Notes: generated by a model not told the origin, from the letters alone. DNA of 64,000 bases from an uncultured Pseudoteredinibacter sp. (GCF_947502065.1 NZ_CANMYE010000014.1:140-64139); one strand, 5' to 3'. Positions 17-38,907 are shown, numbered from the stretch's first letter. Translations and numbers: made by a program.

Positions 17-44
17 GGGGTCAGATCCCTTGGGATCTGACCCC
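17..44 (-). repeat. REP-like palindrome, T-type (GGGGTCAGATCCC-TT-GGGATCTGACCCC)
   Basis: Perfect 13-bp inverted repeat with a 2-nt loop. A variant of the family flank (GGCTCCGA) lies on the minus strand at 45-57. Confidence 0.9.
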
Positions 45-66
45 GTATCGGAGCCGACCTTGCTTG

Positions 67-789
67 CTATTCGCTTAGGCCTGCAATTCTTCCAGGGTTT
101 GTGACAAACAATTGCTCGGCCATCTTATCCCCATAACGCTCAGCCACAATGCCAAACGCCTCAGATAAAACCGGCGGCCTTGATTCACAATTATGTGCAT
201 CACTCGCGACAATCGTCGCCCATCCTTGCTCTAAAATGGTATGCGCTGTCTCGTACGCATAATCACCAAAGCGATCACAAATACTCATTGCGGTTAACTG
301 CAACAAACATCCCATTTCTAAAAATGGATACAGGCGGCTAATATCCGCTGCAAAGCCTTTGTTCCTCTCCGGATGCGCAATCATCGGTAGCACCCCGCGA
401 TCAATCAGCCACTTGGCTAACTTATCACTCCCCGGCGGCACATTGCCGTGGGGCAACTCCAGCAACATTACCTGCTTACCTTCCCATTCACCCAAATACG
501 GCAAGGATTGATTAGCAAACAAGGCCAACACCTCAGCCGATAAACGTACCTCTCCAGCCATGGCCAAGCTCAAAGGAATATTTTCCGCCACTAACTGCGA
601 TTGCAAATGCTCAAAAACAGGCTGAATAGACTGGCGAGTATTTTCCCAGCGACCGGGGTGAATATGAGGGGTGGCGGTCATATGGCGAATGCCATCAGCC
701 GCCGCCATTTTACAAAGCGCTAAGGCATCTTCAAGATCGCGGGCACCGTCATCGATGCCCGGTAAAATATGGCAGTGTAAATCAATCAT
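67..789 (-). CDS. PHP-family tyrosine-protein phosphatase (CpsB/CapC/YwqE type)
   Basis: N-terminal DLHCHILPGIDDG, ATPH, IAHPERN and SDAH metal-binding motifs; directly downstream of wzc. Confidence 0.92.
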   Translation of the reverse strand: MIDLHCHILPGIDDGARDLEDALALCKMAAADGIRHMTATPHIHPGRWENTRQSIQPVFEHLQSQLVAENIPLSLAMAGEVRLSAEVLALFANQSLPYLGEWEGKQVMLLELPHGNVPPGSDKLAKWLIDRGVLPMIAHPERNKGFAADISRLYPFLEMGCLLQLTAMSICDRFGDYAYETAHTILEQGWATIVASDAHNCESRPPVLSEAFGIVAERYGDKMAEQLFVTNPGRIAGLSE

Positions 790-3074
790 GCCGCCCGAAT
801 TTTTTGCTCTTCTTTTTGGTTTTTACTGGCTTTGGCGGTTTCTGCTGCGTAGCCATAACTATCATAATAGCCCGCATAATAATCAGAGCCGTAATAGCGC
901 GAAGATTTATCCAAATCTACCTGATTTAGAATCACACCAACCAGAGGTGCATTAATATCGCGTAAACGCTTCAGGCCAGCCTTCACCTGGGTTGCCGAGG
1001 TAGAATCGGCTTTTACCACATAAACCATGGCACCCACCAAAGGTGCAATCGCCAAGGCATCACTTACCGCCTGACACGGTGGTAAATCAATAACAATACG
1101 ATCGTATTTATCTTCAAGTACTTTCAAAGCCTGTGCAAAGCGCTTAGAAGATAACAACTCTAAAGGATTCGGCGGAATCAAACCGGCCAGCATCACATCA
1201 ACATCACCTTCTTCATAACGCTGAATGCAATCACTAAGATCGGCCGTACCAGCAACCAATGCAGATAGGCCCGGCTTAGCGCGATCTAAGCCCAGCACCT
1301 TACCAATGGATGGGCGACGCATATCAGCATCGATCAATAGAGTTTTTTCCATTTGCGATAATGCGCAAGCAAGGCTGATGGATGTCGACGTTTTACCTTC
1401 TGAAGGTACTGTAGAGGTTACAGAAATGGTTTTTTGTGGCGAATCCAAAGAAGACAGTACAATACCTGTACGAATCGTTCGCACCGCTTCACCAAAGCCA
1501 ATATCTTCGCCTTCAACAAACGCTCGATAACTCTTAATAGCCTTATCTTTACCCTTGGACTTAATAAGCGGCAGTAAGCCCAACATGGTGCTTTGTAATT
1601 TTTGCTCAATATCTTCCGTTGTTTTGATGGTGTTATTAAGCGCTTCCAATAAAAACGCACAAGCGACAGCAAACATTCCGCTCACCACCATCGCCAACAT
1701 AGCAATCAGCTTTTTCTTTGGTTTGGCCGGACTAACAGGAACAACCGCTGGATCCACAATACGAGCATTTGCCGAGTTTAAGTCACCCGTTGCGCTGGTT
1801 TCGTTAATGCGTTGCAAAAATGTATTGTAAATAGCACGCTTGGTTTCAACATTTTGCTCTAGCTCACGTAATTTAAAACGCTTGCGACTCAAGCTTTGCA
1901 AATTGCCTTTTGTCCCTGCCAGTGCGTTATCTAAACTACGCTCACTTGCTACAGCTGCGCGATAATCTGACTCGATACCTTTAGCTACTGAAACCACCTG
2001 CGCATCCAAAGCCACTTTGGCTCGCAGCACTTCTGATTCTACAGCAATCATTTTAGGGTGCTTGTAACCATAACGTTTCGCCAACTCCGATCGTTTTAAC
2101 TCCACTTCTAATAGTGACTCTTTAAAACGTTGTACAGTTTGATCGCGCAAAATACCGGATATACGCTGCAAGCCCTCACTATTGTTACTACCAACTGTGC
2201 GAATCTGCTGATAAACCCCCTCCAAGGCCAAGCGCTCTTTACGGGCATCAACCAATTTATCTGCGACTAAATCAACTTCTTTATTCGCAATATCTGTACC
2301 GCCAGCATTACCCACCAAGCCTTCTTTGTCTTTATATTTCTGCAACGCTAATTCTGCTTCATTCAGCTCGGCCTTGATATTACCCATACGGTCATTTAAC
2401 CAAGAAGAGGCTTGGACAGTAACTTCCAGCTTTGCTTCAAGCCCGCTTTCTATATAAGCCTGCCCCAAAGCATTAGCAACCTCAGCAGCAAGAACCGGAT
2501 CATTAGCTTCGAAGGAAACTTTTGCCAATTGGGTTTTCCGAATTGGTGTAATTCTTAGACGCCCAAGAAAGGTATAGACAAGCTGGTTTAAACCAATTGA
2601 ATTAGAATTTTTCTCGCCTTTTGATGGAAGCTGGAAAGGAAGCATTCCTTTCCAATTAAAACTTTCTTCAACCTGAAATTCTTTATGAGATTGTAAATTT
2701 AAAGAAGTTATAACCTTTTCAACTAAACTACGGCTTTTCAAAATCTCAAATTGAGTCGATAAATACTCTTGGTTTGTACCATCAATTCCATACACTGACT
2801 CAATTGAAACAACATTATTATTTTTATTTTCAATCAATAAAGTGGCTGTAGCCCTGTAAACAGGTTTCATAGACATTAAAACCAAAACCGTCAGCAAGGT
2901 AACTACAAGCGAGAAACCCATTATCCCCCAACGATAACGCATCAATGTGCGCCAATACTGACGAAGATCGATCACCTCTTCATCATACGCAGCCCCCATA
3001 GCAGGCTGATTTAGTGCCATCGGTGAGGCATGCACCGCAGTGGGTACATGTGAATTATGAGCAGGAGGGTTCAT
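786..3074 (-). CDS. wzc: Polysaccharide co-polymerase / BY tyrosine kinase (Wzc/GumC family)
   Basis: Two TM segments flank a coiled-coil periplasmic region. Walker A STVPSEGKT, LIDADMRRP and a C-terminal Tyr cluster (YYGSDYYAGYYDSYGY) are present. Confidence 0.93.
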   Translation of the reverse strand: MNPPAHNSHVPTAVHASPMALNQPAMGAAYDEEVIDLRQYWRTLMRYRWGIMGFSLVVTLLTVLVLMSMKPVYRATATLLIENKNNNVVSIESVYGIDGTNQEYLSTQFEILKSRSLVEKVITSLNLQSHKEFQVEESFNWKGMLPFQLPSKGEKNSNSIGLNQLVYTFLGRLRITPIRKTQLAKVSFEANDPVLAAEVANALGQAYIESGLEAKLEVTVQASSWLNDRMGNIKAELNEAELALQKYKDKEGLVGNAGGTDIANKEVDLVADKLVDARKERLALEGVYQQIRTVGSNNSEGLQRISGILRDQTVQRFKESLLEVELKRSELAKRYGYKHPKMIAVESEVLRAKVALDAQVVSVAKGIESDYRAAVASERSLDNALAGTKGNLQSLSRKRFKLRELEQNVETKRAIYNTFLQRINETSATGDLNSANARIVDPAVVPVSPAKPKKKLIAMLAMVVSGMFAVACAFLLEALNNTIKTTEDIEQKLQSTMLGLLPLIKSKGKDKAIKSYRAFVEGEDIGFGEAVRTIRTGIVLSSLDSPQKTISVTSTVPSEGKTSTSISLACALSQMEKTLLIDADMRRPSIGKVLGLDRAKPGLSALVAGTADLSDCIQRYEEGDVDVMLAGLIPPNPLELLSSKRFAQALKVLEDKYDRIVIDLPPCQAVSDALAIAPLVGAMVYVVKADSTSATQVKAGLKRLRDINAPLVGVILNQVDLDKSSRYYGSDYYAGYYDSYGYAAETAKASKNQKEEQKIRAA

Positions 3075-3134
3075 AAAAGTATTCCGTTTTTGCTAGCGCC
3101 ACTGCACATCTTGTGCTTCGCCTTGCTTTTATTG

Positions 3135-3719
3135 TTAGAAAAAGCTCTGTTCTATATCGATAATATCGCCGGGCAAAATTTTACTGCTTAACTCGCCCTT
3201 ATAAACACTGCTTGTGCCATCAGCCTTTTCGCGAGTAATTGTGATTTTGCTTTTGGATGCACGCTCAGTAAAGCCACCTGCTAGGGCTACGGCTTTTTGC
3301 AGTGTTAAGCCTGGCAAAAAGGCAAAACCGCCAGGCTCTTCTACTTCGCCATTAATAAAAAACTGGCGATACTCTACAACAGAGACATTTACACTAGGGT
3401 TTATCAAGTAACCGTCTTTTAACTGTGTAGTGATATATTCGCTTAACTCACCGGTGGTAAGGCCTTTAACTTTAATTTCGCCTACAAATGGGTAAGAGAT
3501 GGTACCCGCATCACTTAGGCGAGTTTCAAGGCTTAAATCGTCTTCACCAAAAACCTGAATACTCATTAGATCACCCGAGCCTAAACGGTAATCGGATAGG
3601 CCTGCCTCTTGGGCGCTAATTTGTGGGGCAACAACAAAGCAAGCTAAGAATAAAAACAGAAAAGAAACATTAAATTGACGCTGCAGAAACCACAGATGCG
3701 AAGAAATACGCTCAACCAC
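3135..3719 (-). CDS. wza: Short polysaccharide export (OPX) protein, Poly_export + SLBB domains
   Basis: YRLGSGD..I.VFGE, GTISYPFVGEI and GEVEEPG motifs. Only 194 aa, with no C-terminal outer-membrane helix. Confidence 0.88.
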   Translation of the reverse strand: MVERISSHLWFLQRQFNVSFLFLFLACFVVAPQISAQEAGLSDYRLGSGDLMSIQVFGEDDLSLETRLSDAGTISYPFVGEIKVKGLTTGELSEYITTQLKDGYLINPSVNVSVVEYRQFFINGEVEEPGGFAFLPGLTLQKAVALAGGFTERASKSKITITREKADGTSSVYKGELSSKILPGDIIDIEQSFF

Positions 3720-3973
3720 AATACACCTCTATCCTTGAATTGCCATAGCGACTGCACACTAGCTGCCACTGGCCAAATATCAAATATTCGGCACTGGCAC
3801 ATAGAGCCACATTATGACACAGGAACACCCAAGTAAAACTACCGTTTGGCAGGCGCATCAGATGTAAAAATGATACACGGCCAAAAATTTAGAAACAAAA
3901 GTGGGCGACAATAAAAGCCGCCCACTGATATTCAAAAACCCAAGCAAATTAACTTTAAGAAAGCGCTCAGCGC

Positions 3974-5215
3974 TTATAAAGAAACATCCGCTCGCAAATA
4001 AATCGTATTTTTATCGTAATCTAAACCTGAAATATTGGAGCTACGATCACTGTAGTCATAGTTCAAGCTTAAATCTAACCAGCGACGCATGTTATACATT
4101 AAGCTAATACCCCAAGTATCTTCTTCGTCTTCACGGGCATTACCAATGTATTCGCCATCGCGACGACCAGCACTTAAACGCGTTTTAAAGCGTTCACTCC
4201 ACTGGTGAGACCAGCTTAAGTTAACCCCAGTACGATCAATATAAGTGCCTGTACCATCTGTTTCTTCAGGTAATTTAGACGTAGCCAAGGTAAACACTGT
4301 TCTCTCGATTGGAGACCAATCTACGCTCACTTCCCAGCTTACACTGTCATCGTCTTGTAAGTTCGTCGAGTCAAAATCTTTCTCTGCTAGACCTATTTTG
4401 ACCGTACCGGACGTTTGAGCGGTTGCTTCCCAAGTGGCACCTACCAAGTAAAACGTCTCTGAGCTATCCAGTGGTGAAGTTGTTAGATCGTAATCGATCT
4501 TTTTACGCTTAATCTCAAAAATAGCTTGAGTTTTGGGGGCTACGCGATAATAGAATGTACCGGCGACATAATTGTTCTTACGATCACGGGCTGCGTTTTG
4601 ATCCAAAAAGTTGGTGTACTCTTTATCCAAAAAGCCGGCCGCAACTTTTAGTCGGCCATCAGCTTCTTTACCACCGTAGGTATACGCCACATCAAAAGTG
4701 CGCTCGTCATACTCTGCTGGCACCGGGTTAGATGTTGCATCGTTACCTTGGTTGGCACCGGTACCACGTGGCTCGTGATTCTTGGTAAAAGCAGCGCTGA
4801 TATCAAGGTAGTTACGGCTATTTAGCTCTAGATTGATATCACCACGCAAAGAATGATCGGTATAATCATCATCTCGGCTATCTTGCACGATACCGTGATT
4901 TACACCATAGGTAATGGAGTAGCTGTCATTGCCGTTTTCAGCAATAAACTGCACTTGAGGGTTAATAATGGTTACCCACGATTCCTTCTCGTTACCGTCG
5001 GTTAAGAAAAGGTTGCTATCGTAACCATTGCTTATACCTAAGGTAGGCACAAGCCGAAAAGGCCCCATATCTACAGCGGCAGGCTCCAGCGCATTAACCG
5101 GCAGCGCCATTGCAATTGCCAAGGGCAGTGTGGCGAGCTGAACGCTCTTTTTTCCTAAGATCAGCTTAGCCTTATGGCCAATACAGCCGGTACGCGTCGT
5201 CATGACGTCCTCCAT
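3974..5215 (-). CDS. Outer-membrane beta-barrel of EPS export (VpsM/EpsX-like)
   Basis: Signal peptide, alternating aromatic beta-strand pattern, C-terminal strand IYLRADVSL; adjacent to the short OPX. Confidence 0.8.
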   Translation of the reverse strand: MEDVMTTRTGCIGHKAKLILGKKSVQLATLPLAIAMALPVNALEPAAVDMGPFRLVPTLGISNGYDSNLFLTDGNEKESWVTIINPQVQFIAENGNDSYSITYGVNHGIVQDSRDDDYTDHSLRGDINLELNSRNYLDISAAFTKNHEPRGTGANQGNDATSNPVPAEYDERTFDVAYTYGGKEADGRLKVAAGFLDKEYTNFLDQNAARDRKNNYVAGTFYYRVAPKTQAIFEIKRKKIDYDLTTSPLDSSETFYLVGATWEATAQTSGTVKIGLAEKDFDSTNLQDDDSVSWEVSVDWSPIERTVFTLATSKLPEETDGTGTYIDRTGVNLSWSHQWSERFKTRLSAGRRDGEYIGNAREDEEDTWGISLMYNMRRWLDLSLNYDYSDRSSNISGLDYDKNTIYLRADVSL

Positions 5216-5832
5216 GATTATGTCCTTCCTTTTTGCTCCCTAAACCCGCCATTGCGCTCTCTACCGGCTACGCCACAATGACCGAAACAGACCCATTTGT
5301 TTATTTGTCGTTATAAAAACACCACGAGCTCAATAAATCAGGATGACTACTTAAGCATAACTAAAAGGACTTAGTTCGTAGTTTGGGGGCAGACTTTATC
5401 ACACTTTTGGGGTATTTCTAATGCCGCTAGCGCCAAAAAGCATAACATTTCACCAATTAAACGATTTACGCGCCAATTATTTGACTAACGCTGCCCCATC
5501 AACTACATGCAATGCGATATCTTTGCTTGAACAAAAAACAAGCATATCAGTTCACTATGTCAGTGATATAACAACAATAAGACAGGAACCTTAAAACTCA
5601 CTCATGGGAGACACAAAATAGACATGTTAGACTATTACCGTACGCTGGATGCAAGTGCCGACCACATGGGATGGCACGAAATAAACAAGACACGCGTCTT
5701 AAGAATCAGCTTTAGGTAAACAAACCTAGAACTTCCAGCTGGCGGGGTTAAATCTGAGCCCTTTGGGCGAAGAGAAAGCAAGGCTGCTGTTATTCGCGAT
5801 AAAACAAATATGGATATTTAAGGGTCTTTTAA

Positions 5833-6747: not shown

Positions 6748-6786
6748 TACGGCACAGCCCTTGCGAACTAATTACAAATAAAAACT

Positions 6787-8448: not shown

Positions 8449-8543
8449 GAAGCAAGATGTGAGAAGTAAGACGAGGGCAAGCATAAGCAGCAATGTCCAA
8501 ACTCACCTCACATCTACCCTCTCACGTCTAACATCTAACTTCT
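8443..8543. repeat. Two inverted arrays of degenerate 7-bp tandem repeats
   Basis: Left array 8443-8477: ATGTGAG AAGCAAG ATGTGAG AAGTAAG ACGAGGG. Right array 8502-8543: CTCACCT CACATCT ACCCTCT CACGTCT AACATCT AACTTCT. Confidence 0.7.
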
Positions 8544-8552
8544 ACACATACT

Positions 8553-9845: not shown

Positions 9846-9886
9846 GCATAAAACGAGGCCGAAAACGGCAAAGCCTCCCACCCAAC

Positions 9887-10054
9887 GGGGTCAGACCCTC
9901 ACAGGGTCTGACCCCAAACCCATGCACAATCTAAACGCCAAAGCCGATCCGAACCATCCAACGGGGTCAGACCCTCATAGGGTCTGACCCCAAACTCATG
10001 CACAATCTAAACGCCAAAGCCGATCCGGGGTCAGAACCCAAGGGTTCTGCCCCC
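9887..10054 (-). repeat. Tandem array of three REP palindromes (9887-9915, 9963-9991, 10027-10054)
   Basis: The first two are GGGGTCAGACCC-TCA(C/T)A-GGGTCTGACCCC in a near-identical 76-bp unit. The third is GGGGTCAGAACCC-AA-GGGTTCTGCCCCC. Confidence 0.92.
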
Positions 10055-10140
10055 TACCCCCTACACAATCCAAACGCCCCCACTCACAACCCCACCACAT
10101 AGTCTAAGCTTAAAAAACACCACCAAACAAAAAGCCAACC

Positions 10141-10707: not shown

Positions 10708-10720
10708 ACCAAAACAAAAA

Positions 10721-10748
10721 AGGGTCAGAACCCAAGGGTTCTGACCCC
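10721..10748 (-). repeat. REP palindrome, A-type
   Basis: AGGGTCAGAACCC-AA-GGGTTCTGACCCC followed by acaTCAAAGCCG, the reverse complement of the family flank. Confidence 0.9.
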
Positions 10749-10823
10749 ACATCAAAGCCGAAATATTTAAACCTCACCAGAAATCGCTACCAGGCACTAA
10801 ATTACGATCGCTGCTTATTAAAA

Positions 10824-12570: not shown

Positions 12571-12575
12571 ATCAA

Positions 12576-15652: not shown

Positions 15653-15655
15653 CTG

Positions 15656-17818: not shown

Positions 17819-19233
17819 AACTTCCTCCCTCTGTGTTGATCTTGTAAACTTGCAAACGAGGCCCAATTAGCAACCCAAATAAACAACGTAGCCCTAGCCA
17901 TTTCCCAGTAATTATCTAGAAAACCTAGAAGGAATACGAAAAAAGTTCCGCAAAACGCAAAAGCACAAATCCCCACACTACTATGCCGCCTAAGGCTTTC
18001 TTTAAGATTTCCTAGCGAGAACAGTAAAAGCCAGAAATACAAAAGAATACCAACGAATCCCCCAAAAAAACCTAGCTCTCCTAACAACGTCAAATAGCTA
18101 GAGTTAGGGTTCGACAATTGATAACTACCAAAAACGATTTCTGACCTAAAATTACTAATGTACTCTAGGTCATAAGGGCTGAATCTTGGCTGAGTCTGAC
18201 CAAGATACTCTCTTATTATTCCAGACACTCCTGATCCATCTTTTATTAAAAACTCGTAACTAAAAGTGTAATACGACCTACTGGTGTAGTTTCCTGGACC
18301 AACCCCCAAAAAGAAATTCGCTATCTCGTCTCCCCACATATCCATCGTGGCAGCGTAAGACTGGAATTTCCCGAACTGCAATATAAAATATGGATCATCC
18401 AATATATCTAGAAAATCACCATACTTTAGTCTATCCGAGTTATCGAAAAGAGAATCAAGCATGTAAACAACTGATACGGCAGCAACCGCCAACAACCCAA
18501 GTACTGAAAATATTCTCAGCGCATTCCTGCTGTACATAAAATATATAAACACAAACACCACCACCAAAAAAAACGGTAGCGCCGCCCTATACTGAAGCAA
18601 AAAGAAGGTTCCAACTACAAACGAAACAAACGCAAATAAAATACCTACGCCAATTCTCCTTTCATAAAACAAACCAACACCAGCCCCAAGACTTGCCACC
18701 AAAAAAATCGAGAAATAATACGCATTAGCTCCAAAAGTACCGGACAGCAAGTCCGGATTCCCGCCCGAGGAGATATAAAGCGGGTAACTCACAAATATTA
18801 CAACAGCGATGTTTATCAGAATCAAATACAAGAACGTCTTTTGAATTAGTAGCGAAGAGCCATAGTCCTTACCTACCAATCTAGTTAGAACAAAGAAAAT
18901 CAACGGACCCTCATAAAATCCTGCAACATATAGGACAAACGCCGGAAAATATACTGTTGCCACATTCCCCAAAAATGAGATTATTAATAGAGCGAATCCA
19001 ACCACCAGGATCAACTCAAATTTCTTTAAGCAAGCGCCTCGAAAAAACAAACAAAACACAGTTGCAGATAGCGTTAGAACAAAAAAAGGATAGTTAATTA
19101 CATCTACTATTTTTGGCAGCAAGCCGAACGTCTCGGTGAAAAGCCGGCTAGAAACCATAAAAACAATTAGAGCCGCCACCAAGTAAATAAAACATTTTCT
19201 TATCCCCAAAGTTTTCGATTGCAAAACCTGCAT
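17815..19233 (-). CDS. wzy: Polytopic membrane protein, probable Wzy polymerase
   Basis: Many hydrophobic segments, a large periplasmic loop with FFLGVGPGNY, located in a wzx-containing cluster. Confidence 0.65.
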   Translation of the reverse strand: MQVLQSKTLGIRKCFIYLVAALIVFMVSSRLFTETFGLLPKIVDVINYPFFVLTLSATVFCLFFRGACLKKFELILVVGFALLIISFLGNVATVYFPAFVLYVAGFYEGPLIFFVLTRLVGKDYGSSLLIQKTFLYLILINIAVVIFVSYPLYISSGGNPDLLSGTFGANAYYFSIFLVASLGAGVGLFYERRIGVGILFAFVSFVVGTFFLLQYRAALPFFLVVVFVFIYFMYSRNALRIFSVLGLLAVAAVSVVYMLDSLFDNSDRLKYGDFLDILDDPYFILQFGKFQSYAATMDMWGDEIANFFLGVGPGNYTSRSYYTFSYEFLIKDGSGVSGIIREYLGQTQPRFSPYDLEYISNFRSEIVFGSYQLSNPNSSYLTLLGELGFFGGFVGILLYFWLLLFSLGNLKESLRRHSSVGICAFAFCGTFFVFLLGFLDNYWEMARATLFIWVANWASFASLQDQHRGRKF

Positions 19234-19237
19234 ATGA

Positions 19238-26326: not shown

Positions 26327-26352
26327 ATCTCATACCAGTATTACTCCGTACA

Positions 26353-28730: not shown

Positions 28731-28745
28731 TAAAGATCCCTCTAC

Positions 28746-30656
28746 TTAGTAGATATCCTTCGCAAAAAGCGTGAATGGCGTCTTAGCCAATATCTTCATA
28801 TCCAGCCACAGCGACCAGTTATTGATATAGGCCATATCAAACTCCACACGCTTTTCCATTTTATCCAGCGTTTCTGTTTCACCGCGGCAGCCGCTTACTT
28901 GGGCTAGGCCTGTGATGCCAGGCTTAATTCTGTGGCGCGCTAAATAGCGGTTTATTTTTTTGCTATAAAAGTGATTGTGCGCTACTGCGTGTGGGCGCGG
29001 GCCCACTAGGCTCATGCGGCCCTGCAATACATTTATTAGTTGGGGCAGCTCATCGATGGAAGTGCGGCGAATAAATTTACCTATGGGGGTTACTCTATCG
29101 TCGTTTTTGGTCGCTTGTTTTACTTCGCCGCCTGCCTCATCGTGTTGGCGCATGCTGCGGAACTTCCACACTTCAATAATGCTGCCATCCCAGCCGTGGC
29201 GCTGCTGCTTAAAAATTACTGGGCCTTTCGAGCTTAGTTTTACCAGTGCCGCTATGGTTAGCATGATGGGCGATAGCGCAATTAGGGCCAGTAATGCGAT
29301 GCTTCTATCCATTAAGTCTTTTAGCACGGTAGATAAGCGCGAGCTGGTTAGCGGGCTTTCGTTTAGTGATATCAGTGGTACGCCGCCCACTTCACGTACT
29401 GAGTGGTTTACTAGGTTTAGGGCAGAGATATCTGGTGCCCAGATGATGTCTACATTGGCATCCATTAGCTCGATGTTTAGTTTGCTTACTTGTTGGGATA
29501 GCAACATAGGCAGGGCTATGTAGATGCGTTTTATGCCGCAGGCTTCTACGATTTTTATTAGCGAGCTGATGTGGTTTATTTCTGTGTAGGCGGCCAGCTC
29601 TTCTAGTTTTTGTTTTTGGGCTTGGTTTTTGTTGTGGTTTACTACTAGGGATAGGCGGTTTGTGAATGAGGCTGGGGCCGCATTTTGATTAGTGGCTTCG
29701 ATTTTGGGGTCAGATCCCTTGGGATCTGACCCCGTGTGTGGCGTTGCTTCGCTCGCCTTGAACTCTGTGAAGGCGGGTTTGTTTAGGTAGGTGCTGCTTA
29801 GCTTGCCGATGATGGGGACGTTGGCTAGTTTGCGGTTTAGCTTTACGTTGAATAGGCGCTTGCGCTTTTGGGCGAAGACATCGAGTGTTTTTTCTTCGCC
29901 TAATTCTTGTGCGGCTGCGTATTCGCTTTCGGCTACGCTGGTTTGTAGCCCTGGCTGTAAATCCGGCTCGCCCTCTACTTTAATTGTAGCCACTACATTA
30001 TCGCGCACCCATGGGTTGCGGTTTAGGCTGTTTACTAATTGCTGGGCGATTGCTCCGCTACCGATAACTAATGTGGGTATAGAGTGGGAATGGTGAGCGC
30101 GATACATACGCGTTAAATAATGGAAGGCAAAGTAAGCAGCTATTTGGCCTGCCCATGCTGTTGCAAACCACACTAATAAAACTTCGCGCGAATAGGTGAC
30201 GCTGGTTTTGGTAATAAAACCCAGCACTGCCAACAAAGCGACTGTAGTAGCCCATGCAATACTAATGCGCAGCACACTATTAAAGTGCCCTGTCGATCGG
30301 CGGTGTATGCCTTGGCTGCTATATACAAAGGCAATGGCAAAGGCACTGAGCACCGCAAGCACACGATAGTCAGAGCTGATAGCACCCATCTTTATATAGG
30401 CAAGCGTGCAAAGGCTGGCAACTACCCAAGCGATATCGCAGGCCAGTTGTAAAAATGCCACTAGGTTTTGATTGTTTTTTAGCAGGCGCCGGCCTTGAGG
30501 CACATCTACCCCTGCCTGGGGCAATATTGCCTGCTGAATAGCTTCAGAATTTACGGCGGCGCCAAATGCCGGCTCGTTTAACCCTGCCTGCTGTATGTTG
30601 TTGTTTGCTATATGCTCGCCTGCCATATTGGCGGCGTGATTTCCCTGTGACTCCAT
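28746..30656 (-). CDS. wcaJ: Undecaprenyl-phosphate glucose phosphotransferase with a large internal insertion
   Basis: N-terminal TMs, LVIGSG, KFRSM, RRTSIDELPQL, MSLVGPRP and KPGITGLAQV. At 636 aa it carries an extra low-complexity segment containing a REP. Confidence 0.92.
   Translation of the reverse strand: MESQGNHAANMAGEHIANNNIQQAGLNEPAFGAAVNSEAIQQAILPQAGVDVPQGRRLLKNNQNLVAFLQLACDIAWVVASLCTLAYIKMGAISSDYRVLAVLSAFAIAFVYSSQGIHRRSTGHFNSVLRISIAWATTVALLAVLGFITKTSVTYSREVLLVWFATAWAGQIAAYFAFHYLTRMYRAHHSHSIPTLVIGSGAIAQQLVNSLNRNPWVRDNVVATIKVEGEPDLQPGLQTSVAESEYAAAQELGEEKTLDVFAQKRKRLFNVKLNRKLANVPIIGKLSSTYLNKPAFTEFKASEATPHTGSDPKGSDPKIEATNQNAAPASFTNRLSLVVNHNKNQAQKQKLEELAAYTEINHISSLIKIVEACGIKRIYIALPMLLSQQVSKLNIELMDANVDIIWAPDISALNLVNHSVREVGGVPLISLNESPLTSSRLSTVLKDLMDRSIALLALIALSPIMLTIAALVKLSSKGPVIFKQQRHGWDGSIIEVWKFRSMRQHDEAGGEVKQATKNDDRVTPIGKFIRRTSIDELPQLINVLQGRMSLVGPRPHAVAHNHFYSKKINRYLARHRIKPGITGLAQVSGCRGETETLDKMEKRVEFDMAYINNWSLWLDMKILAKTPFTLFAKDIY
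29706..29733 (+). repeat. REP palindrome, T-type, inside the wcaJ coding sequence
   Basis: GGCTTCGATTTT-GGGGTCAGATCCC-TT-GGGATCTGACCCC; translates in frame as (T)GSDPKGSDP(K). Confidence 0.95.
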
Positions 30657-31848
30657 GATCCGCTCCGAGCGTTGTCACATTCCTATTAATCCGTTACATC
30701 CTGGATTTATGTCAGCCGTCTGTGCAGCCTCTTACATCTATTTACTTCTACGCTTATAACCTACTGATCTTGCAATTGGCCGTTTTTATAAATGCTGGCA
30801 TATATAAAAACAGACAAAAAAATGCATCAAACATGAGCGCTAATCACCTTTAAGGCACTCTTGTTTATTTCATTGGTTTGGGGGCTTTATGTTTATCGAA
30901 GGCTTACTCTTATTCTTTCGCTAGAGCTAATAGCTTCGATTGATTGGAATAGTTGGTTGGCTTAGCGCGGCTTAATACCACTGTTTACCGCAGCGTTATG
31001 TCAGTAAATCACCGTCCCGGTGAACTTCATACCGACCGCCGCTTGTAAAGCCAACCCAGCAGTTTCTGGCCTCCCTTTAGCTCACTCTTTTTGGCGCGCT
31101 AATCTACCCTTTTAACTGCGAGAACACCCTATTTCCCTTGGCCTTTTCCAAACTCCGTCTTAGAAATCTCCCTGGTTCTTTATGTTGAACCTAATAAATT
31201 TGATCCCAAATACTTAGCTGGCAGAATCTTATCTTGCCACTATGTAATTTTTTTTACGGATTTAACTTTATTACTTTTTAACTATAAATCCTTAAGAATT
31301 GGCGAGCAGTCTAAGTAATTAAGTTGATGCGAGCAACATTATTAATGTGAGCTGAATCACGATTTTGTGGTTTTTGGTGTTTTAAGCGACAAAATGTCGA
31401 TAACTGGCTGGACAACTCGGTTTTTATAAGATTAAGGAATTTGCAGGCATTTTTATAATAACCAAAGGGATTTAATAAGGTTTGTATTTTTAGGAGTTAT
31501 ATAAACTTTAGAGCCAGAGTATTTGTCGTTTTTTCAGGGTTAGCTCGAAATAAGACTTTAAAACTAAACATTCCTATCAGTTAGCTTATACGACAGGCAC
31601 TTAAGTTTTGTCGCGTTAGTCGTTTTTTTAGGAAATTTTATTTACCTAAGTTCATTAGCTTTGTTAGAATTTTAAGTGGTCTTAGATTGCAGCGCCATTT
31701 GCGATTGTTAATGCTTCCTTAGAAGATGTACGGCTGACAGTACTAGAGGTATCCAAAGCACTTAAGCAACCTAGGCAACACGGCGCAAAACAGCATTGAA
31801 GCTGCAATGGAAGAAAAAGCGATTGAACGCATTCAAGGAGAAACCTCA

Positions 31849-32592
31849 ATGCCTAGTTTATTCAGAAAGGGCGTATCGCCCCTGCTGTTATCATTGCTAT
31901 TGCCTTTAATGGCCAATGCCGATGTAGCATCCGATTTATCCAATAATGTTCCTATTGCCGATGTACTGGCAAATGCTATTGCTGACGGCATGACTGCCGA
32001 AGAAGCCGTAGCCGTTATTGCGGCCAATGATGCCTCACAAGTAGCTGCCGCTGTAGCAGCGGCTGTAGCGGCTAACCCGGCGGCGGCTGTAAGCATTACC
32101 CAAGCGGCTATCGCTGCAGTGCCAGCCCAGGCGGCGGTGATTGCCTCAGCTGCAGTTAGTGCGGCGCCTAATAATGCACAAGCTATTACCAATGCAGCAG
32201 TAACCGCAGCACCTACCGCAGCTGAAGCGATTGTTGGCGCAGCGGTAACAGCGGCCCCACAAGTGGCAAATAATATTGTACAGGGTGCAACTCAAGCGCA
32301 ACCTGGCAACAACACTAACTTTGTTCAGGCCGCGATTGCTGCCAACCCAACGGTTGCAGGCCAAGTAACCGGTGCGACGGCGGCTGGTGGCCAGCAAGGT
32401 AATGCTGGTGACTCAGGTAATACTGGGAATACCGGTGATACCGGCAACACTGGTAATACGGGCAATACCGGAAATACCGGTAACGCAGGAACTGGTAATG
32501 CTGGAGCAGGCGGTGCTGGTGGCGCCGGTGGTTCTGGTGGTGCCGGCGGCGGTGGTGGCGGCGGCGGCGGCGGTGGTGCCAGCCCTGCCTAA
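31849..32592 (+). CDS. Secreted Ala-rich 15-aa-repeat / Gly-X-Y repeat protein
   Basis: AAGGAG RBS before ATG 31849, Sec signal ending ANA, seven 15-aa repeats, eleven Gly-X-Y triplets, poly-Gly tail, own terminator. Confidence 0.8.
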   Translation: MPSLFRKGVSPLLLSLLLPLMANADVASDLSNNVPIADVLANAIADGMTAEEAVAVIAANDASQVAAAVAAAVAANPAAAVSITQAAIAAVPAQAAVIASAAVSAAPNNAQAITNAAVTAAPTAAEAIVGAAVTAAPQVANNIVQGATQAQPGNNTNFVQAAIAANPTVAGQVTGATAAGGQQGNAGDSGNTGNTGDTGNTGNTGNTGNTGNAGTGNAGAGGAGGAGGSGGAGGGGGGGGGGGASPA

Positions 32593-32630
32593 GCTTTGTG
32601 TTTACGGCTTAACGTAAACATACATTACAT

Positions 32631-32663
32631 AATAAAGCGCCCTTTGCGGCGCTTTATTTTTGT
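32631..32663 (+). terminator. Rho-independent terminator
   Basis: AATAAAGCGCC-CTTTGC-GGCGCTTTATT followed by a T run. Confidence 0.8.
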
Positions 32664-32706
32664 CTGCAACACCCTGCCTTTATAAAAATAACTTTATGGA
32701 TGATGT

Positions 32707-34080: not shown

Positions 34081-34133
34081 GGTTTTTGGTGTTTGATGGG
34101 GTGGCTGGGGATTTTGGATCTCGGCTTCGATTT

Positions 34134-34242
34134 GGGGTCAGAACCTTTTGGGTTCTGACCCCGGGTTGGGTTTGGGCGCTATGGTTAGGGCATTTGGGAT
34201 CTCGGCTTCGAGGTGGGGTCAGAACCCTTGGGTTCTGACCCC
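34134..34242 (+). repeat. Two A-type REP palindromes (34134-34162, 34215-34242), 81 bp apart
   Basis: Both are preceded by TGGATC/GGGATC-TCGGCTTCGA; arms are GGGGTCAGAACC/GGTTCTGACCCC. Confidence 0.92.
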
Positions 34243-34250
34243 TTTTTGGT

Positions 34251-35891
34251 TTAGTTCTTTTTGCTGCGGCCGAAGGCGGTTACTGCGCAGCGGTGTGAAA
34301 GTAGATCTACGGTGCGGATGTTATAGTCGCCGCCGCTGGCTTCTAGGGTGGTTACCATTTGGTGGCTATTGGACTCTTGTTCTACTTTGTAAATTTGCTC
34401 TTGATTTAGTGGGTAGCGTACTGGATCGCCTTCGGCCATGCCTACTAGCAGATCAGCTTCGCAGCGCACTTTTGCACGGGTGATATCTGGCTCGCCCTGT
34501 AATGCGAAGCGCATGGTTAGTTCGCAAGCTTTTACTTCTTTATCGTCGGTGCGTTGGCAGGCTAGTAGTTCTTTTTCTAGGGTTAGCAGAACGGGTTGGC
34601 CTGTTGGGTTTGATTGTCTTTTTCTTGTTGTAGCGCTGCTTGGTTTTGCTTGTTCGGGCTCAGCAAGGGAAGCATTGCCAGCCAGGCGATCTTTAAAGCT
34701 TGGTGTTGTGGACGTTGGCGGCTCGGTTTTTGCGCTTTGTTTTTGCATTGGGTGGTTGCTGACGAGGTTATCTGGGTTTTCTTCTGGCCATGGGGTTTTG
34801 TTAGCGGGCTGGTTGGGCCTCGCTGCTGTTTTTGTGCTTGCTGTTATTTGGGTGCCGGTATTAGGGTCAGAACCGATTGGGTTCTGACCCTGGGTTTGGG
34901 CTTCTGCTTTTGTGTTTGCTGCGGTTTGGGTGCCGGTATTAGGGTCAGAACCGATTGGGTTCTGACCCTGGGTTTGGGCTGCTGCTTTTGTGCTTGCTGC
35001 GGTTTGGGTGCCGGCATTAGGGTCAGAACCGATTGGGTTCTGACCCTGGGTTTGGGCTGCTGCTTTTGTGGTTGCTGCGGTTTGGATGCCGGTTTTAGGG
35101 TTAGAACCGTTTAGGTTATGACCCTGGGTGTTTGTTGGCTTGGTGGCGGATTTGGGGTCGGAACCCTTGGGGTTCTGACCCCGGATTGGTTGAGGTTTTA
35201 CCTTTGTTTTTGCTAGGGCGTTTATTGTGGCCCAGTCTTTTTTTAGGAAGTGGGCAGCTACCCAACCGTGTAGGCGTTTGCCATCGTTGTTTGGATCTAT
35301 GGTGGTTATTCTGGCCCAGCCGTTATCTTTGTTATACACCATTACTGGGTGCTCAAATGGTATGGCGCTTAGGCGGATGTGTTTGGTGCTGGGGCCGCTG
35401 CGCACTTTTAGCGATTTAGTTTTCACTTGATGTGGTACGCCTTCACCTATGGGGTGAGGCTGTACTAACGCGGTGAATTCTGCAGCGTTGGTTTTTTTAT
35501 TTCTTTTTGGGCGGTTCGATACTGGGTCTACTTTAATATAGCGTGATGACATCCAGCCAGTGCGTTGTTGTTTGCCCTTGGGTAGGTTTTTATTGATAAA
35601 ACTGACTTCTGTCCACTCTCCTTGTACGCGTAAGCGAGTGACTACATGGCCTTTATTTAGCTGGCTAATGCCGGGGTAATCAGAGCCTGGGCCTTGGCGA
35701 ACTTTGACGAAGTTGGCGGTGATTACGCCGTATTCGGCCGCTTGGGATTTTGGGGTTGTTATTGGGGTGGTTAGTAGGGTGACTAGGGTTAGTGCCAGTA
35801 GGTAGAGTGGGGTCAGACCCCGTGGGGGTCTGACCCCGGTGGTGGTGTTGGTGAAGCTGTTTTTAAACTGGCCTATTTTTGCTGCTGGCAT
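34251..35891 (-). CDS. Secreted protein with two bacterial SH3 domains, a REP-derived repeat linker and an unknown C-terminal domain
   Basis: Signal-like N-terminus; VKVRQGPG..W and LKVRSGPS..NGWA SH3b motifs; (T/A)QGQNPIGSDP repeats; Cys-containing C-terminal domain. Confidence 0.8.
   Translation of the reverse strand: MPAAKIGQFKNSFTNTTTGVRPPRGLTPLYLLALTLVTLLTTPITTPKSQAAEYGVITANFVKVRQGPGSDYPGISQLNKGHVVTRLRVQGEWTEVSFINKNLPKGKQQRTGWMSSRYIKVDPVSNRPKRNKKTNAAEFTALVQPHPIGEGVPHQVKTKSLKVRSGPSTKHIRLSAIPFEHPVMVYNKDNGWARITTIDPNNDGKRLHGWVAAHFLKKDWATINALAKTKVKPQPIRGQNPKGSDPKSATKPTNTQGHNLNGSNPKTGIQTAATTKAAAQTQGQNPIGSDPNAGTQTAASTKAAAQTQGQNPIGSDPNTGTQTAANTKAEAQTQGQNPIGSDPNTGTQITASTKTAARPNQPANKTPWPEENPDNLVSNHPMQKQSAKTEPPTSTTPSFKDRLAGNASLAEPEQAKPSSATTRKRQSNPTGQPVLLTLEKELLACQRTDDKEVKACELTMRFALQGEPDITRAKVRCEADLLVGMAEGDPVRYPLNQEQIYKVEQESNSHQMVTTLEASGGDYNIRTVDLLSHRCAVTAFGRSKKN
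34863..35182 (+). repeat. Five REP-derived palindromes inside the SH3 gene (34863-34891, 34941-34969, 35019-35047, degenerate 35097-35125, 35154-35182)
   Basis: AGGGTCAGAACC-GATTG-GGTTCTGACCCT at exact 78-bp spacing, then 57 bp to the last copy. Confidence 0.93.
35809..35837. repeat. REP palindrome within the SH3 protein N-terminal signal region
   Basis: GGGGTCAGACCCC-GTG-GGGGTCTGACCCC; reads GVRPPRGLTP on the minus strand. Confidence 0.88.
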
Positions 35892-35931
35892 TTTGTTCCC
35901 TTGCCTTGTTTTGGTTTTTTGGCTTCGAGGT

Positions 35932-35960
35932 GGGGTCAGACCCTATGAGGGTCTGACCCC
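35932..35960 (+). repeat. REP palindrome, short type
   Basis: GGCTTCGAGGT-GGGGTCAGACCC-TATGA-GGGTCTGACCCC; exact reverse complement of the copy at 9963-9991. Confidence 0.92.
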
Positions 35961-35975
35961 GACTTTGCTTGCCTT

Positions 35976-37394
35976 TTATTCTTTTGTTCTGCCGTAGTCG
36001 TCTTGTAAGCGTACGATATCATCTTCGCCTAGGTATGAGCCCGATTGTACTTCAATCATTTCTAGGGGAATCATACCTGGGTTTTCAAGGCAGTGTATTA
36101 CACCGATTGGGATGTAGGTGGATTCGTTTTCGCTGAGTAGTAGTGTGTTGTCGCCGTTGGTTACCTTGGCTGTACCACTAACCACGATCCAATGCTCGGC
36201 GCGGTGGTGATGTTTTTGCAAGCTAAGTTTTGCACCTGGGTTTACGGTAATACGTTTTACTTGGTAGCGCTCGCCTGCGTCGATGGAATCGTATTTGCCC
36301 CATGGGCGATACACTTCGCGGTGCTGCACATGTTCGCTGCGGCCTTCTTTTTTTAGTGTGCTAACAATATCTTTTACTTCTTGCACTCGGCTGCGATCAG
36401 CGACTAACACAGCATCTTTGGTATCCACGATGACTAAGTCATCTACACCGATGGTGGCGATTAATTTTTCTTGAGCGATAACAAAGTTATTGTGACTGTC
36501 TTTATCTATCACGTCGCCTTGGTGAACATTGCCATCAGCATCTTTTTCTTTGATATCCCATAGGGCCGACCAGCTGCCGACATCGCTCCAACCAGCATCC
36601 AATGGTAATACTACCGCTTGATCGGTTTTTTCCATTACTGCGTAGTCGATGGAATCGTCTGGGCAGGCTTCGAAGGCTTCCTTGTTGATTCTTAAGAAGT
36701 CTAAATCGGCAGCAAGGTTTTGAGAGGCTTGCTCGCAGGCTTGGAATATATCCGGGCGATATTCTTTTAGCTCTTCTAGATAACGATCAGCGCGGAATAG
36801 GAACATACCGCTATTCCATAAGTATTCACCACTGGCTAGGTAGCTTTCTGCGGTGGCTAAATCTGGTTTTTCTACGAAGGCATCTACCTTAAAGGCATCG
36901 GCTTGGGCTTCGCCTTGGCGAATATAGCCATAACCTGTAGCGGGGCTATCGGGTACGATGCCGAAGGTGACTAGCTTGCCATCGCGGGCAATGGGTAAAG
37001 CCTGTTGTACGACGCGCTGGAACTCTTGAGTGTTTTCTATGACATGATCGGCCGCCAATACCAATAAAAGCTGGCTGCCCTCACCTTTCTGTTGAGCTCT
37101 AAAGGCTGCCAAGGCAATGGCTGGGGCGGTGTTGCGGCCAATGGGCTCTAATAAGATTTCGGCTTTGGTATCTAACTGGCGTAAGTGCTCGGCTACCAAA
37201 AAGCGGTGTTCTTCGTTGGTAATAATGGTGGTTTGGTGATCGGCCAAGCCCTCAAGGCGCTGCACGGTTTCTTGCAGCATGCTGCTGTCGCTATTGAGGT
37301 TTAGAAACTGCTTCGGATAGGCCGTGCGGGACATAGGCCACATGCGAGTACCCGAGCCACCAGCCATGATGACGATATTCAGATCTGCAGACAT
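35976..37394 (-). CDS. manC: Mannose-1-phosphate guanylyltransferase / mannose-6-phosphate isomerase
   Basis: [46 protein letters not shown] and [13 protein letters not shown] motifs. Confidence 0.95.
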
Positions 37395-37586
37395 TTTTCA
37401 ATCCTTTGTTTTATGTTGGTTATTTAATGGACTCTCGCTATTCCTTACACCCTGTTAGCGAGTTACTGCGTCCTGCATAGCACGGTAGAGGTTAGGCCTC
37501 TATTATTGCTGTTTAATTTAACATTTCGTGGGCCAAAGCCCAATGGCTGAAATTGATCAATTTTGGTGGCTAGATTTGGGGCGTAA

Positions 37587-37614
37587 GGGGTCAGATCCCG
37601 TGGGATCTGACCCC
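37587..37614 (+). repeat. REP palindrome, T-type
   Basis: GGGGTCAGATCCC-GT-GGGATCTGACCCC. Confidence 0.92.
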
Positions 37615-37712
37615 GGGTGTGGGCACGACGGTTGTGGCCTTGCTGTTTTCTATGGAGGAGCTGTGGATTCGTTTTAGTACTGGCTTTGAATTTTAGATCA
37701 CGGCTTCGACGT

Positions 37713-37740
37713 GGGGTCAGATCCCTTGGGATCTGACCCC
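37713..37740 (+). repeat. REP palindrome, T-type, 5 bp from the RAYT stop codon
   Basis: CGGCTTCGACGT-GGGGTCAGATCCC-TT-GGGATCTGACCCC. Confidence 0.93.
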
Positions 37741-37745
37741 GAGTG

Positions 37746-38327
37746 TTAGGTGGTTCGGATTGATTGGATTTGTTTGGGGTTTAACGCTTCTTGGAAGAGG
37801 TTTTGGTAGTTGGTTTGTTTTTGTTCTTTGGTATTTCCTAAAGAATCATATATGGAATGAGCTGTTGTAAGATTGTCACTTTTGCCAAATGCATTGCAGT
37901 TGTAGCTGGACCATTTGTATTGGCTAGGGTGGTTAACTAAGCCAGCTCGGACGGGGTTTAGCTCTACGTAACGATAAGCACACAACAGGTAACTATCGTG
38001 AGTAATTTGCTTTGAGCGGTAGCGGCCTTGCCAAAGTGTGCCACTGCGCTGGTATTTTTTGTTGTAGTAGTTGCTGTAGGCAATGCTTAGGGTTTGCATC
38101 ATTTTTGAGGGGGCGTTTGATTGCTCTGCTGTACAGAGTAGATGGATGTGATTACTCATGAACACCCAAACGTGGATGCTTACTTTGTAATGGCTGGACT
38201 TTGTTCTTAGTAGGCTTAGGTATTTTACGTGGTCTTGCTCGTCGTGGAAAACTTGTTGCCGATTGCAGCCGCGCTGGACGATATGGAGGGGAATGCCTGG
38301 GGTGGTTTGGCGGGGCTGTCTTGGCAT
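37746..38327 (-). mobile_element. REP-associated tyrosine transposase (RAYT, HUH/Y1 TnpA family)
   Basis: MPRQPR..PGIPLHIVQRG start, HUH motif SNHIHLL, LWQGRY, catalytic Tyr in RYVELNPVRAG, YKWSSY; flanked on both sides by palindromes. Confidence 0.92.
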
Positions 38328-38380
38328 TTTGGAGTTACCTTTGGGGGTTGGATTTGAGCTTTAGTTCTCGGCTTCGATAT

Positions 38381-38420
38381 GGGGTCAGATCCCTAGGGAT
38401 CTGACCCCGTTCTGACCCCG
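38381..38420 (+). repeat. REP palindrome, T-type, plus a duplicated right half-arm
   Basis: CTCGGCTTCGATAT-GGGGTCAGATCCC-TA-GGGATCTGACCCC, then GTTCTGACCCCG. Confidence 0.92.
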
Positions 38421-38428
38421 TTTTGGTT

Positions 38429-38575
38429 TTAGGTTTTGATTTCTGCTTTTTGTTTGGCTAGGCCATATTTTATGAAGGCGAAGTTAATGGTTTTGTAGGG
38501 GAAGATGGCTTTGCTTTTGTCTGAGCACTGAATGACGTGTAGTGGGATTATTTGGGGTCTTTGTTTGCTAGGCAT
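38429..38575 (-). pseudogene. Decayed 5' fragment of a second RAYT-like gene
   Basis: MPSKQRPQIIPLHVIQCSDKSKAIF aligns by eye with the RAYT start MPRQPRQTTPGIPLHIVQRGCNRQQVF; AAGAGAG precedes the ATG. Confidence 0.55.
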
Positions 38576-38699
38576 GGTGTTTTCTCTTTTTTTGAGGTTT
38601 GTTTTAGTTTGGTGATTTGTTTGATGGTAGGTATCAGCCAAGTGGGTGGTTTGTGATTTTGAGCTTGGGTAATTTGGTTTATGGCGTTGTGTTTTTGGT

Positions 38700-38907
38700 G
38701 GTGTTTTTGGTGTGGTTGTAGCTTTGGGATCTCGGCTTCGAGATGGGGTCAGATCCCGAGGGATCTGACCCCGGGTGTGTGGGTATTTGGGTTCTGCTTT
38801 TGTTGTTCTTTAAGGCGTTTTTTTTGGGTGGGTGTTTTTGGGGTGGTTGTAGCTTTGGGATCTTGGCTTCGATGTGGGGTCAGATCCCTTGGGATCTGAC
38901 CCCGGGT
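38700..38907 (+). repeat. Two 77-bp direct repeats (38700-38776, 38831-38907), each carrying a T-type REP (38745-38772, 38876-38903)
   Basis: GGTGTTTTTGG.GTGGTTGTAGCTTTGGGATCT.GGCTTCGA..TGGGGTCAGATCCC..GGGATCTGACCCCGGGT repeated at 131-bp offset. Confidence 0.92.

Follow-up and report, generated by a model that had tools for sequence, protein, structure and literature searches.

A dispersed family of hairpin repeats probably tied to a single-copy RAYT of the GGGGWSAS kind in Pseudoteredinibacter

The tyrosine transposases associated with repetitive extragenic palindromes (REPs), i.e., RAYTs, that have been assayed in vitro come from E. coli, S. maltophilia and Marinomonas, are GTAG-dependent and cut at CT or CA (PMC8266576). 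RAYT-like genes without GTAG repeats were described by Di Nocera et al. in 2013 under the names TIRYT and TIRtron; their flanking repeats share the motif GGGGWSAS, and some of the families, such as that of S. maltophilia K279a ORF 1152, occur in clusters and in moderate abundance and show partial or complete self-complementarity (PMC3733652). According to Quentin et al. (2018), most TIRYTs probably correspond to subclass 2.1 of TnpA(Y1), which is defined by a C-terminal extension resembling a helix-turn-helix (HTH), counts among the longest TnpA(Y1) proteins and had no REP-like sequences near its genes (PMC6006769). Here we analyse a contig stretch of 64,000 nucleotides from an uncultured Pseudoteredinibacter sp. 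(NZ_CANMYE010000014.1:140-64139, hereafter the window), in which 20 hairpin repeats accompany a RAYT gene. The repeats are probably REP-like, non-autonomous elements tied to a single-copy, domesticated and vertically inherited Y1 HUH RAYT of the GGGGWSAS/TIRYT kind. The locus is thus a good fresh example of a little-studied, already described class and no new kind of element.

A regular-expression scan allowing at most one mismatch per arm recovered exactly 20 palindromes of the form GGTCAGA...TCTGACC within 17-38903 and none across 39-64 kb, which reproduces the number and positions given in a preliminary description of this DNA; two extra matches, at 18168 and 52993, were attributed to chance and dropped from the family. 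The division into three classes also agrees with that description. The T-type (GATCCC/GGGATC), with the full form GGGGTCAGATCCC-NN-GGGATCTGACCCC, has seven copies, at 19, 29708, 37589, 37715, 38383, 38747 and 38878. Nine copies, at 10029, 10723, 34136, 34217, 34865, 34943, 35021, 35099 and 35156, belong to the A-type (GAACC/GGTTC), whose full form is GGGGTCAGAACCC-NN-GGGTTCTGACCCC, and four, at 9889, 9965, 35811 and 35934, to the short type (GACCC/GGGTC), with the full form GGGGTCAGACCC(C)-NNN-(G)GGGTCTGACCCC. The 26-nt pattern of the outer arms matched 10 times in the window, compared with 0.00 over 100 shuffles, and the predicted fold of the hairpins in single-stranded DNA has 12-13 pairs and an energy of -12.8 to -15.1 kcal/mol (z = -5 to -7). 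Every full-length copy starts with GGGGTCAG and ends with its complement. No GTAG or GGAG abuts any of the 20 hairpins on either side, as had been claimed; this feature is already published for the GGGGWSAS class, and GGGGTCAG fits the published motif exactly, so the earlier suspicion that such palindromes were known was justified. Rfam gave no match within the window, and a full-text literature search with the repeat sequence strings returned only unrelated eukaryotic papers. Neighbouring units are direct repeats spaced at 76, 78, 81 and 131 nt. The same periods mark several copies as local tandem duplicates, so the 20 copies do not stand for 20 independent events; because they descend from few founders, the covariation of their arms within the window amounts to only two or three independent paired changes.

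The densest cluster of repeats, five copies within 1.3 kb, surrounds an open reading frame (ORF) of 193 aa on the minus strand (37746-38327), and all five are T-type, as first reported. The encoded protein matches Pfam Y1_Tnp (E = 2e-16) and reaches 76 bits with the NCBIfam model REP_Tyr_transpos (cut-off 80), more than the 32 bits obtained with that of IS200 (cut-off 55), i.e., it carries a RAYT rather than an IS200 signature. The residues H60 and H62 (H60-I-H62), Y120 (in RYVELNP), E122, N124 and P125 are invariant across 62 homologues. The AlphaFold model (pLDDT, the predicted local distance difference test score, 93.5) has as its best PDB match 4ER8, the E. coli TnpAREP with a REP hairpin (E = 6e-9, target-normalised TM-score 0.72), and the IS608 and ISDra2 transposases rank below it. 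Of the E. coli residues that contact GTAG, W94 and Q95 are kept, and S, K and T stand in place of E100, H101 and R104 in an alignment that is weak (E = 0.12). The gene occurs once in the window, with no tnpB around it. Of the surrounding repeats, all on the plus strand, the T-type hairpin at 37587-37614 is the only one without the upstream octamer GGCTTCGA described below. Octamer-bearing units lie at 37702-37740, ending 5 nt from the RAYT stop codon, at 38370-38408, 54 nt upstream of the start codon, at 38734-38772 and at 38865-38903.

The host lineage, Pseudoteredinibacter in the Cellvibrionaceae, could be compared at three points, i.e., the window, a JGI metagenome (L001) and the genome GCA_947500695.1 (L124). 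AceE of the window shares 99% identity with the protein of an uncultured Pseudoteredinibacter. Both relatives have about 91-92% nucleotide identity and the common gene order aceF-RAYT-manC-SH3 protein-wzy, and the adjacency of RAYT and manC persists even at 55% identity of the RAYT protein. The ratio of nonsynonymous to synonymous divergence (dN/dS) of the RAYT gene relative to its L001 orthologue is 0.077 at a dS of 0.51, with a dS of about 0.3 for the comparison genes manC and aceE. In both syntenic relatives, the orthologous repeats are kept at the same sites. Pairwise differences, counted over the aligned orthologous units of the three lineages, were found at 6 of 432 stem positions (1.4%) and at none of 120 octamer positions, in contrast with 16 of 72 at the four central loop positions (22%), 14 of 46 in the spacer (30%) and 37 of 194 in the upstream arm (19%). 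By these counts, stems and octamer change at least 15 times more slowly than the bases nearby, and the rate in loop and spacer is close to the synonymous one. A single event accounts for four of the six stem differences: at 37589, the window and L001 have a T-type copy, and L124 has an A-type copy, in which T-A has become A-T on both arms.

The lineages also differ in copy number, because units of about 81 and 131 nt that carry repeats have been lost or gained and because the number of 78-bp repeats in a coding sequence varies. The half-hairpin remnant GTTCTGACCCC (38409-38419, plus strand) marks a deletion between two direct copies, both of which, about 131 nt apart, are still present in L001 and L124; L124 retains all four upstream copies as two pairs with a spacing of 131-132 nt. 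The 131-nt duplicated unit around the copy at 38734-38772 (38702-38832) is absent from L001, which together with the remnant shows that adjacent direct copies delete and duplicate. Relatives with 88-93% AceE identity (L125-L127) have no RAYT at the locus and no copies in about 65 kb. They are only weakly informative, because the polysaccharide cluster in which most copies lie is also missing: there, aceF is followed by a SIMPL-domain gene and others, without the RAYT, manC, SH3, wzy and sugar-transferase genes. From about 39050 leftwards, the RAYT and the polysaccharide cluster with its many repeats therefore look like an insertion or a replaced segment beside aceF.

Beyond this lineage, we searched one genome per species with the pattern GGGGTCAGA-N(4-12)-TCTGACCCC, which fixes the 9-bp stem base and leaves the inner part free. 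It occurred at no fewer than 120 loci in Marinobacter, Janthinobacterium, Rugamonas, Pinirhizobacter and many others, although some singletons from GC-rich genomes are probably chance matches; the genome of the window did not appear among the matches listed. Among these, stem position 10 is paired in 144 of 156 hairpins (C-G 70, T-A 30, G-C 24, A-T 20), and 115 of the 156 have three or more further perfect inner pairs. Covariation of the arms had been put forward as a sign of constraint on the hairpin, and it is now seen within the window, in the class switch of L124 and across taxa. In Marinobacter (for example L018 and L122, among the loci L003-L122), the same stem base coexists with the inner variants AGAA...TTCT and TGAA...TTCA; this A/T alternation at position 10 is the same as that between the A-type and T-type of the window. 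The Marinobacter hairpins are extended by a symmetric TGAAAAT/ATTTTCA flank and have no octamer. A metagenome scan for T-type or A-type copies returned a single locus of 60% GC, which was unrelated and was rejected.

In seven of the eight other lineages examined (L022, L078, L129-131, L132, L134 and L135), the homologous RAYT has GGGGTCAG or GGGGACAG repeats on its flanks; only L133 has no such repeats beside the gene. Two of the loci that had been chosen by the DNA motif carried a RAYT homologue: a Marinobacter metagenome-assembled genome (L022), where such hairpins flank the gene, and Candidatus Thiodiazotropha (L078), where inverted GGGGACAGACCACGTTTTA repeats do. Of the four loci chosen by the protein, three carry GGGGTCAG no further than about 170 nt from the start codon; in two of these, the inverse repeat follows just past the stop. 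The 55%-identical RAYTs beside manC are surrounded by GGGGTCAGACCCC 13-mers; in such a relative a GGGGTCTGACCCC repeat contains the stop codon, and in the window a hairpin starts just past the stop. The motif thus flanks homologous RAYTs in unrelated genomic contexts. The proposed tie between the repeats and the RAYT is borne out by a gene that occurs once in the window, evolves under purifying selection and keeps its synteny across three lineages, as well as by the motif-flanked homologues elsewhere.

Copy number outside the window was estimated from the assembler's own contig word depth in four runs of one sample, which contains a related strain and not that of the window, at a 90% match threshold. 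Relative to a single-copy depth of 2.8-4.9 across the runs, the T-type hairpin reached 97, 78, 21 and 526, the A-type 240, 574, 13 and 835 and the short type 25, 20, 7 and 45, figures that are rough, as T-type and A-type cross-match at this threshold and other strains may contribute. The excess is mostly 5- to more than 100-fold, with the lowest values for the short type and in run X7, and repeat depth lies at 20-100-fold in three of the four runs and at 4.5-fold in X7. On either side, the unit is bordered by many different sequences. Along the unit, the depth climbs first at the octamer and a second time at the T preceding GGGG, and past the last C it collapses over no more than 3 nt; at the copy at 38865-38903, it rises from about 38862 and has fallen by about 38906, which delimits the dispersed unit. 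These data show tens to perhaps 100 or more copies at independent loci. In X23 and X24, the raw-read runs (DNA and RNA) for the host-labelled organism, no read came from this bacterium.

We propose that the substrate would be single-stranded DNA, most likely at the replication fork, where the palindrome of 28-29 nt is predicted, from folding and covariation, to form a hairpin of 12-13 bp with a loop of 3-5 nt. The enzyme would read the 9-bp stem base GGGGTCAGA/TCTGACCCC sequence-specifically, since the stem base is invariant and the apical stem covaries, both within the lineage and across taxa; the apical 3-4 bp would need pairing only, and the loop would be free. By homology with E. coli TnpAREP and IS608, Tyr120 and the H60-x-H62 pair would cut single-stranded DNA nearby, and units would be copied or moved. 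The dispersed unit is asymmetric, with an optional 5' arm ending in GGCTTCGA, a spacer of 3-4 nt ending in T, and the hairpin with its sharp end at the last C. The traceable changes in copy number since the lineages split comprise deletion or duplication of units of 76-131 nt and tandem expansion in coding sequence, and no clean new insertions. It is a more doubtful conjecture that one RAYT clade serves all GGGGTCAGA hairpins of beta- and gammaproteobacteria, which would then make up a single superfamily, and that this clade, unlike the GTAG enzymes, reads the fixed 9-bp stem base and not an unpaired 5' tetranucleotide, with GGCTTCGA as the Pseudoteredinibacter cleavage or positioning site. 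On this view, the conservation of individual copies, those in coding frame included, would reflect a mutual dependence of host and element.

The octamer GGCTTCGA occurs exactly nine times in 64 kb, always on the plus strand, compared with 1.8 expected, and eight of these occurrences lie 3-4 nt 5' of a hairpin. With one mismatch allowed, it accompanies 11 of the 20 hairpins, 3-4 nt from one side, reversed in the two copies towards the left end of the window (19 and 10723). The alignment reproduces the asymmetric flank consensus claimed in the preliminary description, TTTGGGATCTCGGCTTCGA-NN-T-GGGG. A second mini-hairpin in the flank (TCG-GCTT-CGA) folds in some copies only and shows no covariation, and was rejected as a consistent feature. 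A pre-existing insertion target, such as TTAC for IS608, was also rejected as an explanation of the octamer, because eight of its nine exact occurrences adjoin repeats; the octamer is a part of the dispersed unit. The absence of any difference between orthologous copies shows that it is under constraint. Our best guess, offered tentatively, is a cleavage or positioning site, because the octamer contains CT, a dinucleotide cut by characterised RAYTs.

We give comparable, limited credence to the view that the octamer arm has no function and is a founder sequence copied along with the hairpin. Such an origin would fit its lineage-specific occurrence, its absence from part of the copies and a depth of about 20-50% of that of the hairpin in three of the four runs (about 90-100% in X7), as well as the upstream part of the arm, TTGGGATCT, which resembles a truncated right arm of the T-type hairpin. 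Hitch-hiking, however, gives no protection after insertion, and an octamer without a single difference beside a spacer and an upstream arm that both vary is hard to reconcile with it. The conserved one-sided flank noted earlier stands as far as its constancy and its presence at many independent loci, as judged by contig depth, are concerned; it is restricted to this lineage and is no general feature of the copies.

The hairpins could also now be mainly host elements, kept copy by copy, to which the RAYT has only a historical or maintenance link; this view overlaps with ours, and as an alternative to it we consider it rather improbable. Possible roles are protection of mRNA 3' ends, transcription attenuation, nucleoid or gyrase sites and peptide linkers. 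The conservation of stems and octamer at the same sites, with loops and spacers drifting at about the synonymous rate, is what such a role would leave behind; most copies sit at gene ends, no new insertions are seen, and seven copies lie in frame within two genes in all lineages. The orientation of the copies relative to transcription is not uniform, however, and a run of T follows only one of the 20 (TTTTT, after the hairpin at 34215-34242), the layout of an intrinsic terminator being otherwise absent. Moreover, the RAYT is under strong purifying selection and co-localised with the densest cluster, and the same motif stands beside homologous RAYTs in unrelated contexts.

Several observations nevertheless count against a family of repeats actively served by its RAYT. 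Among the three lineages, no clean new insertion or excision was seen, so current mobility is unproven, and the site-by-site conservation, unlike that of a purely selfish repeat that turns over, suggests a host-level function or a process of repair or conversion. The octamer is missing from 9 of the 20 copies, and none was found, among the matches listed, beside the same hairpin family outside the Pseudoteredinibacter lineage (Marinobacter, Janthinobacterium and others); the depth figures are as rough as stated above. In the literature searched, TIRYT is named only in PMC3733652 and PMC6006769, and neither reports biochemical tests. Finally, most homologues have 220-240 aa, and the window protein, which stops just after a conserved I-R, is without their C-terminal tail of 35-45 aa, which could mean altered or lost DNA targeting. 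A search downstream of the gene gave no remnant of the tail, and Pfam found no HTH in the tails of the longer homologues. In the 55%-identical lineage (L129 3940-3965; L130), repeat-derived sequence, GGGGTC...GGGGTCTGACCCC, supplies the codons of the C-terminus (KPKPKGVKPKGV) and the stop, which suggests that a repeat insertion truncated the RAYT gene in that subclade. Taken as a whole, the persistence of copies over a dS of 0.3-0.5 without turnover of sites argues that individual copies are also maintained, by host selection or by an enzyme-dependent process, beside their tie to the RAYT.

It is very unlikely that a dimeric DNA-binding protein uses the palindrome, in double-stranded form, as its operator. 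The site has perfect two-fold symmetry, and the 13-mer GGGGTCAGACCCC is itself nearly palindromic; the three inner-stem variants in one genome and the four pair types across taxa, however, point to base pairing and not to a half-site preference, and an operator would hardly be present in tens of copies, some of them coding, next to a gene for an HUH enzyme of single-stranded DNA. Least likely of all is an ordinary autonomous IS200/IS605 insertion sequence with end hairpins or a mere artefact of local tandem duplication, as the Y1_Tnp fold and the several tandem copies might suggest, given a gene that is single-copy in the window, syntenic, slowly evolving and below the IS200 cut-off, and hairpins that occur at many loci with unrelated flanks and mostly in 5- to more than 100-fold depth.

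Seven of the 20 nominally extragenic palindromes lie in frame inside ORFs, in two genes. One gene encodes an SH3-domain protein (34251-35891, minus strand; Pfam SH3_3, 3e-21). It contains a 78-bp tandem repeat (34822-35129), in each unit of which an A-type hairpin encodes QGQNPIGSDPN in frame. The four plus-strand hairpins of this region (34863-35125), at 34863-34891, 34941-34969, 35019-35047 and, in degenerate form, 35097-35125, have A-T as the outermost pair and no octamer. An adjacent A-type hairpin with one stem mismatch (35154-35182, plus strand) is also in frame and without the octamer; with it, the region has five hairpins in the window, three in L124 and two in L001, and the frame is always kept. 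A short-type hairpin in the N-terminal coding region (35809-35837, plus strand; GVRPPRGLTP) lacks the octamer too. The second gene is a sugar transferase with the domains Bac_transf and CoA_binding_3 (28746-30656, minus strand), in which an octamer (29694-29701) and a T-type hairpin (29706-29733) form a plus-strand unit at 29694-29733 that encodes TGSDPKGSDPKIEA in frame. The unit is kept in L001, where the gene has an indel of 6 aa directly beside the hairpin. In the same polysaccharide cluster, the ORF at 31807-32592 (plus strand, 261 aa) has no Pfam or NCBIfam match and contains repeats at 32416-32580 with periods of 9, 18 and 27 nt (GGTAATACC..., GGCGGTGCTGGTGGCGCC); by these tandem repeats, its product is a low-complexity, Gly-rich repeat protein.

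The other copies away from the RAYT lie outside these two genes. On the plus strand, an octamer with an A-type hairpin (34134-34162) at 34123-34162 belongs to a duplicated stretch of 81 nt that L001 lacks; the next octamer with an A-type hairpin, at 34204-34242 (hairpin 34215-34242), is the sole copy followed by a T run, and an octamer with a short-type hairpin (35932-35960) at 35921-35960 separates manC from the SH3 gene. On the minus strand, the T-type hairpin at 17-44 has the variant octamer GGCTCCGA (plus-strand positions 48-55), and the A-type hairpin at 10721-10748, between convergent gene ends, has the variant GGCTTTGA (plus-strand positions 10752-10759). Two short-type hairpins, also on the minus strand, at 9887-9915 and 9963-9991, are copies 1 and 2 of a 76-bp tandem duplication (9878-10027, 95% identical); the first has the flank variant GGATCGGCTTTGG about 26 nt off, and the variant, read on the plus strand as CCAAAGCCGATCC, follows each of the two hairpins at about 26 nt. 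The A-type hairpin at 10027-10054, which has one arm mismatch (TCTGCCCC), was assigned to neither strand.

The RAYTs studied biochemically all use a GTAG tag, and the GGGGWSAS class lies outside that group. The present locus offers a compact substrate, i.e., a perfect hairpin of 28 nt whose stem occurs naturally in three variants and which a conserved octamer optionally accompanies, together with an enzyme of 193 aa that has naturally lost its tail and is still under purifying selection. It is therefore a convenient system for the choice of hairpin and cleavage site without a GTAG guide. The comparison of three lineages follows, as is rarely possible, the change of such repeats locus by locus: stems are conserved and loops are free, one site has switched class on both arms, deletions have occurred between neighbouring copies, and some copies are used as coding linkers.

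Compared with REPtrons (PMC2817692; 4ER8, PMC3479197; PMC8266576), the locus likewise has a single-copy HUH/Tyr enzyme amid its own palindromic repeats, which flank the gene and are dispersed, as judged by depth in the related strain. The repeats are GC-rich perfect palindromes with short loops, as in group 3 Sm and Mb, occur in several hairpin variants per genome, as do y, z1 and z2 of E. coli, and cluster near the gene, as in Marinomonas MWYL1, and the best structural match is 4ER8. In contrast to REPtrons, no GT[AG]G stands at 0-2 nt on the 5' side of the stem, conservation falls on the stem base and an octamer 3-4 nt away, and the REP_Tyr_transpos score is just below its cut-off. With REPINs (PMC3116915; PMC5581495), the locus shares a vertical single-copy RAYT with a population of repeats, slow evolution of the RAYT and long persistence; it differs in lacking the long hairpins made of inverted REP doublets and in having single symmetric hairpins, which are direct repeats where adjacent. 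The catalytic fold is that of IS200/IS605 elements (IS608, ISDra2), and the substrate logic, a hairpin with a single-stranded cleavage site nearby, is possibly the same, but the window gene is not multi-copy and has neither tnpB nor distinct left and right ends, and the 3-4 nt at the foot of the hairpin, the guide position in IS608, are variable here save for the final T.

TIRYTs and TIRtrons resemble the locus in the RAYT-like gene, the lack of GTAG and the flanking repeats with GGGGWSAS (GGGG[AT][CG]A[CG]), and the homologues in L078, L132 and L134 show the classic layout with inverted terminal repeats and the same motif. The window repeat differs in being a complete and perfect hairpin with the motif on both arms; as each copy is a palindrome, the motif occurs in both orientations on both sides of the RAYT, although the units, when oriented by their octamer, are direct repeats around it. 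The GGCTTCGA arm is also unreported there. Compared with subclass 2.1, the window protein is without the defining C-terminal extension, and the RAYT has REP-like sequences beside it, which Quentin et al. did not see. Each candidate family thus has one defining feature that does not hold here, and we file the locus, by its DNA motif and homology, in the GGGGWSAS class with a truncated enzyme; its membership in the TIRYT class is what we infer from homologues that have the TIRtron layout.

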